Part shown: in pieces, positions 25,201 through 29,086 of the stretch | How the letters are laid out: each line of letters opens with the position of its first letter | How positions within the stretch are numbered: the first letter of the stretch is position 1 | Assembly: GCA_020137815.1 (NCBI GenBank) | Contig: CM035356.1 | Location: 62,001-126,000, forward strand | Direction: 5' to 3' | DNA length: 64,000 nt | DNA from: Hormiphora californensis | Taxonomy: Eukaryota > Animalia > Ctenophora | Notes under the pieces: model-generated | Told to the model about the DNA's origin: nothing | Databases searched by the model: none | The model's input: only the letters and a program-made list of their open reading frames with translations | Program-made: the position numbers and the translations under genes

Positions 25201-28200
25201 TATAAGTGCAATTCATCGTCATCTTAACGACCAACGCTCCCCTCACGTCTGACCAAGTGGTCTCCCATTCTTGCAGGAGGAGGAAGCTAAAAATTTGGTT
25301 TTCCATGCTATTCGAGCTGGTATTGTGAACGATCTGGGATCTGGCAGTAATGTAGACATCACTGTGATCCGAAAGGGAAATGTTGAGGTATTCCGACCTT
25401 ACCAAGTCGTCTGCAAGAAGAGTGAGAGGTAAGAATACGATAGATTAATCCTTTCATTTTCAAAATTATTGATTCTTATTTATATATTATGTTTTACATT
25501 CAATCATTACTTTATTAAGATTTAAAGGTTGACAAGATACCTAAAACTTTTCGTTAATCGTATTTTTTTCGATTTATCGGGAGTTTTAAGCATTTTTTCA
25601 GCATTTTTTTTTCAGACAAAAAAATCTGAAAAAATGCTGATAAATCAAAAAAATACGGTTAACGAAAAGTTTTAGGTATCTTGTCAACCTTTAAGACTAA
25701 AATTGTTTACATCTTCTTGAGGTCCTTAAAAGTCATGTCCATTATCTCCACCGGGTCAATATCCCGTCCTGTAGTCATCTCGAACAGCTCCACTAGTTCT
25801 GCACTTAGTAGAGAGTCCATACCACACTGGTGGAGGCTATAATTCCAAACTGGGTCTCCTCGGATACCCAACATGCCCATTACTCTTCCTAACATACTTC
25901 CACCAGTTTTTTCCGTAACCACTGCAGTAACAGTGTTTATCTCCACACCTTTCCAAAATGCTACTATTCCCCGTTCTCCACTTGCCTGTAAAATATGGTA
26001 ATCTGGTGGTAGCTGGATCAGCTGAGGGGAGTGAAGTAGAACATGAAGATGGGTTATCTTGTGAGACTTTTCAATTCCCTCCAATTGTGATATAAGGTCT
26101 ACCGCTATGATGTCATAGGGAGTAGCCCGGTTGCTATGGTTTCCGCTATGGGTGACCGTCCCCGAGAACACCACGGTACCATTGTACACAATCTCCACCC
26201 TCTTCCCACCAAGCGTAAACACATCCAACATATTGTTTGCAGATCTTTTCTCGATCTCCCCAAATATTTCCCCTTGTATTCCCACAATACCGGTTTTCAT
26301 CATCACCCTCACCAGCTCGATGGGCACCCTAATTACCTCTTTGAGCACATATTTGGACAGATCCAGGGAGAAGCAACTATAGTTCAGGGAACTTGTCGAA
26401 TCTCCAAAGCTGGAATGGCTGCTACTTGGAAAGTGATCAGGAAGGGGCACATACCACGAATCCTCAACGTCCCACTTTATGAAGGAGCCCGGGTTTGAGG
26501 GGACTGTGAAAGTTTGAAGTTTGTGCAGGGGAAGTGCCTGATGAAAAAGGTGGACTTGGGTAAGGGCAGTGATGAGAGGGGCATCAGTGGAGCCCATCAG
26601 GTAGGATGTTGTTATACCCGGTAAATCGTGTATCATTCCTCTTGTTAGCATTGGCTTTGGAGATACTTCTAGAACAATGGCTGTAGGAGGTACAACTTGT
26701 ATGTAAACTCGGTGGAACTGGACTTGGTTCCGCAGGTTATCAGCCAGGTATTTAGGAGTCAATGTCACTGGGTTGTCCATGTTACTTGTGCTATGAAAGA
26801 ACTTAGGGAGATTTCTACAACCGAGGAAATCCAAATTTTGTCGATACTTCTCTGAATGTTCACTCATAATTCGAGAGTGGAAGGGGACCCCCTCACTGAA
26901 AACCTTGGTAAATGCTACTCCCTGATCCCAATCCAGAAGTAGCCTCTTTGCTCTGGTTACATGGCATTCCGATCCAGAAATGATCACAAGTTTGGAACTA
27001 TTAACACAAGCTACATCAACTCTTCCCACTATCTCCTGAACAATCCTTCCTGGGTCTGAGTGAGAAGTTGGTAACTTTACTGCAACCATCACCCCACTTT
27101 CACATCCCTCGACCGCTCGAGCTCTCTCCTCTGTGCACCTTACAGCTTCTTCTCGGGTGATTGTTCCACACGCGTAGAGTGCCGCTATCTCTCCAAAACT
27201 ATGGCCCATAACACCATCAAAAGTCACACCGAGGTATCGAAGAATATCAATTAGGCCGAGCTGTACCTCAAGCAGATGGAAAAATAGTTTAGAAATCCCA
27301 GGAGTTTCAACAGAAACAAGTGATTTTGTTTCTCGAACTGATCTTCTGTATTCTGGGTAGCGGGAGAGGACATTTTCCATTCCATTCCAGTTACCACCGA
27401 CACCTCCCACCACCAGCCACAAGGGTCGCCTGGTATCGCATCCTGTTTCCATGGCAACCTCTTCTGTCACGTGATCTAGAACTGCCCTGATTGGTCCACT
27501 AAAACTAGTGGCCCTGGATGGATCTTGTTTCAGTACAGCCTGGACGGTAGCAGGGTTAGGACCACAGATACTGGTGCATCTGGGAGTGGTGCCTGGATCT
27601 GGGACGGTAAGATGGATAATAGTGTACATACCAGTTGTACCATGGTTGGAGATGAGACTCTCTCCAGTTCCTTTGTAGAAAAGGGAGAGAATAGTTACCA
27701 ACCCAGATGCAGGACCGAGTTCACCGAAAGCCTTTCTTGTCTCTCCTTCGATATAGTTGGTCTTGAGGTCGCAAAGGGCACTCTTTTCAATATCTGAGAT
27801 ATGTTTGTTCCAACCGTTGTCTCCATAAACAACAACCTCAGAATTTGTGATCCCCTCTAGAACTCCTTTCCATACTTCCGCCATCAGAACATCCTCCCTT
27901 CCCCCGATGAATTTCCTCCAAACTCCATTTATCGTGCCGTAAACTCTTCCTTTAGTTTTCTCCCGCCTAGTGAGAACCATAGCTACAACAGCCTCACCCC
28001 TCTCCAGACCCTCCGCCAGTAGACCACTAACGGCTTCACAGAAACTCCTCTTGATTATCATCTCAGTCACCCCTACCACTACCATCTCACAAATACCATC
28101 CCTGATAAGATTAACTGCTGTGTCCATAGCAACCAAACTGTTTCCACTGGCAACCGTGTAACTAGTGCCCGTCAAATTAAACTCAAAGGAAATCCTATTG

Positions 28201-29086
28201 GAAAGCATCGCTCGACAACCCCCAAGTACACCATACCCGGACATAGCTTTGTACTCGTGTCCAACTGATTCACCATAGTCTCCAACCTCGCACGACACAA
28301 TGCAACCAATCTTGTTATCAGCAGTGGTTACCGGGGTAACAACCCCAGCATCTGTTAGAGCCTCCTTCGCACAGTGAAGAAGGACCCTCATTTGGGGATC
28401 GGTGTTATCCGCTTGGAGGGCATGCATCCTGAATTGAGAAGTATCGAACTGATCTTTTGGAATCCTTCCTATGATTCTCGATTTGGGAGTATCATCTTCA
28501 CTGCTTTTTCCACTGTTTTTTCCCCTTCCCGAAGTAGTGTTCCCCGTATTGTGTTGGAGGAGAGTTGAGTTTGGGGTTGTTATGAATTTTGCGAATTCCT
28601 CGGTAGAATTGAGAGTTGGAAAGCGACATGAAACACCCGTTATTACAATATCTTCATCACCCATCATCATGCCACACTATAAAATTGGAGTTAGTTCTGA
28701 CACTGGTGCGTGTGTGCCAGAGAAAGATCACAAAATGACAAAGGATCTGAATTTACTAAAAAGAAATGAAAAGAATCACGAGGGCCTGGATATGATACCA
28801 CTGAATGGCAATTTTCTCAGACCTCTCTCTGTCCCCCTCCCTCCCCTTTCTTCTGTCCACCATAATATGCCACTGTAACGGTGTTGAGAGATACTGTACT
28901 GGTTGTGCAGTTTTTCTTTTCCAAAATGCCCCTCTCCATCCTACCGCCTATAATAATGTAAAATGTTTCCTCAGGGCTGGAGACTATACCTTCCCCGTGG
29001 GTACTACTGTTGTGACCTCCTCCACTGAGATGGTCCCCTTCTCTGCTCTCACCGTCACCGACGAGGAAGTCATGGAGATCTCTTAA
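19259..29086 (+). CDS. PSMB7: Proteasome subunit beta type-7 (beta-2), 7 exons
   Basis: Exons 19259-19335, 19415-19496, 19741-19883, 20172-20267, 24817-24991, 25277-25428, 28975-29086. [67 protein letters not shown]. Confidence 0.96.
20325..20438 (+). mobile_element. tRNA-derived SINE-like element, copy B
   Basis: GGGTTTG...GGTAGCTTAGTTG (A box)...AGTTCAATTCCC (B box)...CAAACCC plus the shared tail. Confidence 0.55.
20996..23271. mobile_element. 2.3-kb foldback element built of ~10-bp TGGCGCCAWW units (Merlin/MULE-like ends)
   Basis: TIR GGTAGTATGAAAGATTAGGTCGTGCGCGCC. Perfect 8-bp TSD AATTAATC (20988-20995, 23272-23279). Confidence 0.9.
24198..24763 (+). repeat. Tandem duplication (~297 bp) of a HINE-like end
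   Basis: acctagttatccccacactg starts at 24198 and at 24495. Both units end GGTCACCTTTGCGCTTGCCAGCGCAGTGA. Confidence 0.8.
25526..25690. mobile_element. Kolobok-like MITE
   Basis: TTAA|AGGTTGACAAGATACC...GGTATCTTGTCAACCT|TTAA. Lies ~16 bp from the FAS-like stop codon. Confidence 0.85.
25707..28670 (-). CDS. Intronless animal-FAS-like protein: degenerate KS - acyltransferase - ACP (987 aa), nested antisense in PSMB7 last intron
   Basis: KS landmarks [61 protein letters not shown]-type linker [20 protein letters not shown]. Upstream acceptor-like ttttatAG 6 nt before ATG. Confidence 0.88.
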   Translation of the reverse strand: MMMGDEDIVITGVSCRFPTLNSTEEFAKFITTPNSTLLQHNTGNTTSGRGKNSGKSSEDDTPKSRIIGRIPKDQFDTSQFRMHALQADNTDPQMRVLLHCAKEALTDAGVVTPVTTADNKIGCIVSCEVGDYGESVGHEYKAMSGYGVLGGCRAMLSNRISFEFNLTGTSYTVASGNSLVAMDTAVNLIRDGICEMVVVGVTEMIIKRSFCEAVSGLLAEGLERGEAVVAMVLTRREKTKGRVYGTINGVWRKFIGGREDVLMAEVWKGVLEGITNSEVVVYGDNGWNKHISDIEKSALCDLKTNYIEGETRKAFGELGPASGLVTILSLFYKGTGESLISNHGTTGMYTIIHLTVPDPGTTPRCTSICGPNPATVQAVLKQDPSRATSFSGPIRAVLDHVTEEVAMETGCDTRRPLWLVVGGVGGNWNGMENVLSRYPEYRRSVRETKSLVSVETPGISKLFFHLLEVQLGLIDILRYLGVTFDGVMGHSFGEIAALYACGTITREEAVRCTEERARAVEGCESGVMVAVKLPTSHSDPGRIVQEIVGRVDVACVNSSKLVIISGSECHVTRAKRLLLDWDQGVAFTKVFSEGVPFHSRIMSEHSEKYRQNLDFLGCRNLPKFFHSTSNMDNPVTLTPKYLADNLRNQVQFHRVYIQVVPPTAIVLEVSPKPMLTRGMIHDLPGITTSYLMGSTDAPLITALTQVHLFHQALPLHKLQTFTVPSNPGSFIKWDVEDSWYVPLPDHFPSSSHSSFGDSTSSLNYSCFSLDLSKYVLKEVIRVPIELVRVMMKTGIVGIQGEIFGEIEKRSANNMLDVFTLGGKRVEIVYNGTVVFSGTVTHSGNHSNRATPYDIIAVDLISQLEGIEKSHKITHLHVLLHSPQLIQLPPDYHILQASGERGIVAFWKGVEINTVTAVVTEKTGGSMLGRVMGMLGIRGDPVWNYSLHQCGMDSLLSAELVELFEMTTGRDIDPVEIMDMTFKDLKKM

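Follow-up and report, generated by a model that had tools for sequence, protein, structure and literature searches.

A 64,000-nucleotide window from the ctenophore Hormiphora californensis (assembly GCA_020137815.1, contig CM035356.1, positions 62,001 to 126,000 of the forward strand; coordinates below count from the first letter of the window) carries a gene at 25707..28670 on the minus strand whose product belongs to a real, conserved and apparently undescribed family of reduced members of the fatty acid synthase (FAS) lineage of animals. Judged from its sequence, the 987-aa chain has lost all three condensing residues together with the reducing and releasing domains, and has kept the residues for loading and carrying an acyl group. 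The predicted layout is an inactive ketosynthase (KS0), a linker domain (LD), an acyltransferase (AT), a probable dehydratase remnant (pseudo-DH) and an acyl carrier protein (ACP). We put at about even the chance that the family is a conserved, selected remnant of animal type I FAS that, being without condensing residues, likely serves as a stand-alone loading and carrier module for a separate enzyme.

Domain architecture and catalytic residues

Pfam recognizes an N-terminal KS domain (E 5.6e-34) and an AT (E 6.6e-27) in the 987-aa protein, with a weak PP-binding match under the cut-off (0.0014). At E ≤ 0.1 there is no match to the KS C-terminal, dehydratase (DH), enoylreductase (ER), ketoreductase (KR) or thioesterase (TE) domains, and all NCBIfam matches lie far under their cut-offs. 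Against the full FAS order of KS-MAT-DH-psiMT-psiKR-ER-KR-ACP-TE (MAT, malonyl/acetyltransferase; MT, methyltransferase), only KS, AT, the probable DH remnant and ACP are represented.

In FAS, the KS depends on C161, H293 and H331, and the MAT on a catalytic dyad of S581 and H683 and on R606, which binds malonyl (PMC6954729). The ketosynthase-fold domain of the ctenophore protein (aa 5-356, 27603..28658), delimited by Pfam, an alignment of the six family members and a structure model, retains none of the triad. Ser175 (28146..28148) occupies the position of C161 after a two-residue deletion and Asn285 (27816..27818) that of H293, each identical in all six members; Glu317 (27720..27722) stands at H331, where the other five have Asp. 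Among the other KS domains aligned, Cys and the second His are kept in 66 of 67, the exception being an oyster FAS-like protein. With the triad lost in all six, no condensation by this chain is predicted. The preliminary description of this DNA had the catalytic Cys deleted; the Cys is indeed lost, but it is replaced by Ser rather than simply removed. Every motif that description quoted is present in the protein, and its central claim, that the triad is gone and the loading and carrier residues remain, extends to all six members, no alignment having restored a Cys-His-His triad.

The KS-AT linker domain is shortened by alignment and structure comparison (aa 357-412, 27435..27602). In the AT that follows (aa 413-716, 26523..27434), Ser491, Arg516, Phe597 and His598 are the equivalents of S581, R606, F682 and H683 and are conserved in six of six. 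The MAT residue F553 is animal-specific, in contrast to the Gln of polyketide synthases (PKS) (PMC6954729); the family has Phe at this position in two members, Leu in four and Gln in none. A post-AT linker (aa 717-750, 26421..26522) bears the WD..W motif of animal FAS, and its profile ranks animal FAS-like proteins first, in agreement with the FASN-like linker recognized earlier. At the C-terminus, the acyl carrier domain (aa 925-987, 25710..25898) holds Ser953 within a G[ML]DSL motif found in all six members and matches FAS ACP in profile comparison (E 6e-9); the protein ends here, without a TE.

The stretch between post-AT linker and carrier domain (aa 751-915, 25926..26420) probably represents a trimmed, inactive dehydratase, an assignment of moderate support. 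Sequence profiles that start in the linker run on in the same register into the first half of the FAS dehydratase, at E 8e-6 and 4e-7 when the linker is included; without it, that register scores only 0.08 and 0.03. The catalytic His of dehydratases is the H of an H.IDGR..P motif. The FAS version reads GH.IDGR; the stretch aligned to it here reads Y[DV]L[NK]E.I, and the His is absent. The ESM Atlas returned nothing usable for aa 751-915, and for P0006 it returned generic type I PKS clusters. A dead dehydratase remnant is probably a better account of these residues than unrelated sequence, giving a modelled architecture of KS0-AT-pseudoDH-ACP. The earlier view that DH, ER, KR and TE are all missing therefore survives for the last three, which have no Pfam match, but probably not for DH, and the roughly 180 divergent residues supposed to have replaced them are probably this same remnant.

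A structure model built from a 34-row alignment reached a pLDDT of 77 overall; the fold from the six sequences alone (pLDDT 44) was not used. Its best structural matches are the KS-MAT regions of mammalian FAS (PDB 2vz8, 5my0 and 3hhd as FASN references), with Z 42.6 over 703-714 aligned residues, and the ACP-to-KS span of Elysia EcPKS can also be aligned to it. The model shows a strand-helix-four-strand pattern over aa 751-915. One match row runs from model residues 5-913 onto residues 1-1106 of pig FAS, and the part beyond residue 750 is barely tested by this structural comparison.

Conservation and selection

An orthologue search returned 23 matches among 7989 candidates. Five of these span 99-100% of the protein, with identities of 35-38%: four are ENA records, and the only named orthologue is a hypothetical protein of Mnemiopsis leidyi, which by itself makes a ctenophore the likely source. 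Identity across the six members is 35-41%, and the window protein is the most divergent of them. A search of 1.84 billion representatives found two full-length relatives among the best 150 matches, the remainder being long multi-module proteins, and a scan of metagenome contigs gave 202 pattern matches, none of which was confirmed.

Selection was measured against a close relative, organism B, whose contigs are about 97% identical, span the ORF, show no listed indel within it and run on into the last PSMB7 exon. The test used 35 of the 37 differences, those listed over aa 371-845, so that its scope is a part of the chain beyond the KS. There were 19 synonymous and 16 nonsynonymous differences, with a ratio of nonsynonymous to synonymous differences per site (pN/pS) of 0.27 (p 1.6e-4); the AT alone gave 0.20. 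Purifying selection acts on the AT. Codon 944 reads as a stop if its sites are scored singly, but both changes lie on one contig and jointly encode Glu.

Loss of catalytic residues and relaxation of the C-terminal part are what a decaying pseudogene might show, and a contaminating sequence might also be suspected. Both readings are extremely unlikely. A frame of about 1000 aa has stayed open in six lineages that share only 35-41% identity, and a pN/pS of 0.27 means that the gene is not decaying; the same comparison answers the possibility of decay raised in the preliminary description. As for contamination, the gene is embedded in a host intron, shares one contig of the second organism with the last PSMB7 exon, to which it is joined there, and is present in DNA runs from two studies of the same organism. 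The pseudogene reading was rejected on the open frames, the pN/pS and the intron setting kept in organism B.

Ancestry of the family

That the family belongs with the animal FAS clade, against the outgroups sampled, is well supported by profiles and phylogeny. When 138 targets are ranked with profiles of the KS, the AT, the linker and the ACP separately, animal FAS-like proteins come first in every case, and they fill the top 15 places for KS, 15 for AT and 8 for ACP. In a comparison with PDB entries, the profile of the family reaches 277-308 bits with mammalian FAS, 219-222 with Elysia EcPKS1/2 and at most 151 with bacterial or fungal PKS. A tree computed from KS and AT together had 73 rows, 6 of them from the family, 40 from animals, 13 from fungi and 14 from elsewhere. 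In it the family is sister to all 40 animal proteins with an SH-aLRT of 100, and the AT alone (60 rows) gives 97. Likelihood mapping groups the ctenophore family with animals in 2999 of 3000 quartets (2892 with KS alone, 2720 with AT alone). Profiles, PDB scores, trees and quartets thus all favor the descent from the FASN family that was first suspected by eye.

In a test of 131 placements on a fixed, well-searched backbone, the sister position had a bp-RELL of 0.987 under LG; the 24 next best placements and the named alternatives listed had p-AU below 0.03, and fungal and bacterial placements 2e-5. Under the C20 mixture the sister position was again best (bp-RELL 0.726), and fungal and bacterial placements were rejected (p 0.001). 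A bacterial or fungal origin of the family was accordingly rejected under both models.

Other results count against so simple a picture of ancestry. Eleven placements within animal FAS were compared under C20, and 10 of them are not rejected. One approximately unbiased (AU) test, on a quick tree, failed to reject a grouping of ctenophores with fungi (p 0.49); we think that an under-searched baseline tree is the cause, and the result stands as a contrary one. Diagnostic columns are equivocal: of 86 states typical of animals the family shares 17, and of 48 typical of non-animals it shares 9, an even split that fits an early branch and proves nothing. The trees were computed without the near-copies P0293, P0295, P0296 and P0297, and their sampling lacks animal PKS, mollusc animal FAS-like PKS (AFPK), placozoan and amoebozoan sequences.

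On this evidence, the family was probably passed down from a common ancestor of ctenophores and other animals and then stripped of the ER/KR region and the TE. An ancient horizontal transfer of FAS into stem ctenophores, from a cnidarian, a bilaterian or an unsampled protist, is a less probable origin and is independent of how the protein works. The coding sequence is a single exon, the family stem is long (1.3-1.4), nested placements survive under C20, ctenophores carry other transferred enzymes (PMC6005172), and sponges are reported to be without type I FAS (PMC10764717), all of which would suit a transfer. However, the sister position is best under both LG and C20, the nine ancestral-type states common to the family and non-animal PKS fit an early split, and the confirmed transfers in table 3 of PMC6005172 come from non-animals.

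The preliminary description went further and proposed a retro-duplicated FASN derivative, possibly a regulatory partner of FAS. Neither proposal is supported: Lin et al. report no working type I FAS from ctenophores (PMC10764717), and a search for longer proteins gave no ctenophore-labelled long relative or type I FAS among the 120 of 325 matches listed, which is weak evidence.

A second animal FAS with a dead KS was encountered in the oyster Saccostrea cucullata. Its FAS-like protein P0031 (P0034 is a 90% relative) carries the same three replacements, Cys to Ser, His to Asn and His to Asp, but it retains every other domain of FAS and falls within the bivalve FAS proteins. Placing the ctenophore family as sister of P0031 was rejected under LG (p 0.004) and not under C20 (p 0.24). 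Given the nesting of P0031, shared ancestry with the oyster protein was rejected, and the likeness is probably convergent.

Proposed function

Of the roles suggested in the preliminary description, that of a loading module is the likeliest. If the chain is a stand-alone loading and carrier module, Ser953 would be phosphopantetheinylated by a phosphopantetheinyl transferase, and the AT would move a malonyl or short acyl group from CoA onto this serine in the same protein. Conservation along the chain peaks in the first half of the dead KS, a domain that might keep a dimer interface and an acyl tunnel or dock a partner. The loaded ACP could then hand its acyl group in trans to a separate, hypothetical enzyme. 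One candidate acceptor is a type III PKS-like gene of bacterial derivation in Mnemiopsis, ML18354a (PMC6005172 table 3): the ACP of a FAS can supply type III PKSs with starters, and the hand-off from ArsA to ArsB/ArsC offers an analogous precedent (PMC6274091). A stand-alone KS pairing with the dead KS is another candidate.

Several observations sit badly with a pure loader. Conservation is highest in the dead KS and not in the AT: 82 of 169 positions are invariant in all six members over aa 67-235 (49%), as opposed to 91 of 304 in the AT (30%), and a pure loader leaves this unexplained. Invariant positions number 19 of 165 in the pseudo-DH and only 15 of 63 in the ACP core. Among the differences listed against organism B, pN/pS is 0.84 over aa 752-987, and aa 847-987 hold 14 nonsynonymous and 3 synonymous changes, so that the C-terminal part looks weakly constrained. 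No partner enzyme was found, the 12 other long ORFs of the window being without a PKS module.

The conservation of the KS bears on a reading in which the protein is the chain-length-factor-like (CLF-like) half of a split synthase, its dead KS pairing with an undetected active KS polypeptide (a type I fragment or a cytosolic type II enzyme) and working with separate reductases to make cytosolic fatty acids or a polyketide. Precedents exist in the pairing of KS with CLF and in the split MbtC/MbtD system. By mapping onto the structure in PMC6954729, aa 67-235 are inferred to line the tunnel to the dimer interface, and they are the residues that are 49% invariant; Lin et al. also leave room for "an unknown lipid biosynthetic route" in ctenophores (PMC10764717). 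We nevertheless regard the split synthase as fairly unlikely: that paper reports no type I KS from its limited ctenophore data, no long relative labelled as ctenophore stands among the 120 of 325 matches listed, and a homodimer accounts for the same conservation.

The finding that close species show little constraint at the pseudoDH-ACP end, and the concentration of the strongest constraint on a catalytically dead domain, would also suit a protein with no downstream condensing partner, one that binds, buffers or hydrolyses malonyl- or acyl-CoA or acts as a scaffold or sensor; murine MAT hydrolysis is measurable (PMC6954729 table 2). A non-biosynthetic role of this kind is unlikely, since the ACP serine and GxDSL motif are kept in six of six at 35-41% overall identity, as are the AT dyad and Arg in full.

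Ser175 might itself be a retained nucleophile, the KS0 then acting as a non-elongating acyl relay between carriers in the manner of a bacterial KS0 or Ser-type loading KS. Ser is present in all six members and sits at the start of a predicted helix (178-190), but both histidines are lost, the loop is two residues short, and the oyster FAS with the same three replacements shows that Cys to Ser can be simple decay. This relay is the least probable of the active mechanisms, at slightly under a one-in-ten prospect in our judgment.

The boldest form of the loading-module proposal, which we hold as tentative and rather doubtful, is that ctenophores retain the sole trace of a type I animal FAS predating the split between ctenophores and FAS-bearing animals, rebuilt as a dissociated cytosolic system in which a dimer of dead KS, AT and ACP feeds a separate condensing enzyme, possibly the type III PKS of bacterial derivation. 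Were this so, it would supply a missing comb jelly lipid or polyketide route and move the origin of animal FAS to before ParaHoxozoa.

Comparison with known systems

With metazoan type I FAS the ctenophore protein shares the KS-LD-MAT fold (Z 42), equivalents of MAT S581, R606, F682 and H683, a residue other than Gln at F553, the WD..W post-AT linker and a FAS-type ACP with its DSL serine. It differs in lacking the KS triad, in a DH that appears trimmed and without its His, in the absence of the pseudo-MT, pseudo-KR, ER, KR and TE, and in its length of 987 aa as against about 2500. Identity to a coral FAS is 26%.

AFPKs such as Elysia EcPKS1/2 belong to the same wider clade and likewise depart from FAS in domain architecture (PMC10764717). 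The ctenophore family, however, scores lower against EcPKS than against FASN and is predicted to be unable to condense. AFPKs, reported from molluscs and arthropods only, were detected through the scores of full-length KS domains; the criterion was a KS that falls between FAS and PKS, at roughly 200-600 bits with the FAS HMM of those authors (PMC10764717). On an in-house animal KS profile, a different HMM from that of Lin et al., the six family KS domains score 105-128 bits and four animal KSs 478-725.

Bacterial loading modules of the KSQ-AT-ACP kind (GfsA/PikA1), and those of the NysA type, also combine a non-condensing KS, an AT and an ACP in one chain, which primes a synthase downstream. 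KSQ domains have Gln at the Cys position and keep both His for decarboxylation, and NysA has the layout KS(Ser)-AT-DH-ACP. The ctenophore protein instead has Ser, Asn and Asp/Glu, with both His lost; a bacterial origin was rejected, and no PKS module neighbors the gene among the 12 further long ORFs of the window that were scanned. For NysA, the role of loading module is stated in PMC5655351.

Azotobacter ArsA, with ArsB/ArsC, would share with the ctenophore protein the proposed gift of an ACP-bound acyl group to a separate condensing enzyme (PMC6274091); ArsA, however, builds the chain itself, and the ctenophore pairing with a type III PKS is hypothetical. By the features compared, the family appears to be neither a working FAS, nor an AFPK, nor a KSQ module.

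Implications for the origin of animal FAS

Lin et al. (2024) restricted their analysis to KS domains of full length. In limited ctenophore data, and in sponges, they found neither type I FAS nor AFPK nor PKS; they dated the origin of animal FAS to ParaHoxozoa and allowed for an unknown ctenophore lipid route (PMC10764717). The low KS scores make it likely that the family escaped this survey: its KS is so eroded that screens by KS score would probably miss it. Searches of the literature on ctenophores or Mnemiopsis with FAS or PKS found no description of the gene, within a coverage that mostly excludes subscription journals; the supplements of PMC10764717 could list ctenophore KS hits.

A FAS-clade gene in Mnemiopsis and five other lineages argues against a ParaHoxozoa origin (PMC10764717); this ctenophore setting, the chief point about the locus, was not raised in the preliminary description. 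The enzyme family would be older than the 2024 survey concluded, and the absence of FAS in ctenophores would be a reduction, unless the gene was transferred, in which case the ParaHoxozoa origin is left standing. The family would also show, in an animal, a megasynthase pared down to a loading module, and its small soluble protein gives a directly testable handle on ctenophore lipid synthesis.

Locus and host intron

The ORF runs from an ATG at 28670 to a stop at 25707-25709 on the minus strand as one uninterrupted exon. Its host is a GT..AG intron of PSMB7 on the plus strand (25429..28974, 3546 nt), flanked by the penultimate exon (25277..25428) and the last coding exon (28975..29086); the last exon follows in the same order on one contig of organism B. 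A further exon upstream (24817..24991) matches proteasome beta-7 (E 1e-26). ORF call, intron boundaries and beta-7 match bear out the intact 987-codon frame, antisense in the last PSMB7 intron, as originally described. Hormiphora has 2357 nested intronic genes (PMC8527503). Nesting being so common in ctenophores, the location is ordinary, and any special meaning of it was rejected.

Signals around the ORF fit a transcribed gene without demonstrating transcription. A splice-acceptor-like stretch (CTAAC, a pyrimidine run and AG), read directly from the minus strand at 28677..28696, ends 6 nt before the ATG and is a possible spliced-leader or 5' untranslated region acceptor. Past the stop codon lies a high-copy inverted-repeat element resembling a miniature inverted-repeat transposable element (25515..25701, with very high contig depth), and beyond it, on the minus strand, AATAAA at about 25512-25517, a likely polyadenylation signal. 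A search for a spliced-leader motif gave a single match with one mismatch (20074-20089), at chance level (14 of 100 shuffles). None of the runs listed as containing the gene is an RNA run; the single candidate for one reached 2 of 30 bins and barely touched PSMB7, and is therefore uninformative on expression.

In organism B, one contig runs from a PSMB7 exon end straight to 25643, and other contigs carry an intervening exon (window 24908-25015 and 25643), which suggests a short duplicated exon fragment beside the 3' end of the gene. Elsewhere in PSMB7, an intron holds a 2.2-kb foldback element (21021-23236) with 268-nt arms of 99% complementarity, GGCGCC-rich tandem units between them and more than 1000 internal inverted pairs.

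Other features of the window

A 390-codon open frame with a RING-H2 finger at its end lies at 298-1470 on the minus strand, and a 782-codon frame with SPRY and AAA_33 domains at 45993-48341 on the plus strand, which presumably resembles hnRNP U-like proteins. Two adjoining plus-strand frames separated by one stop (14283-15986) look by eye like a decayed retroelement and have no Pfam match. A short-exon gene on the plus strand at about 34790-36900 is MBF1/EDF1-like by eye, with a GC-rich low-complexity intron stretch at about 34900-35330. A long inverted repeat is visible by eye at 31000-32860, where 31000-31700 recurs reversed near 32000-32680.

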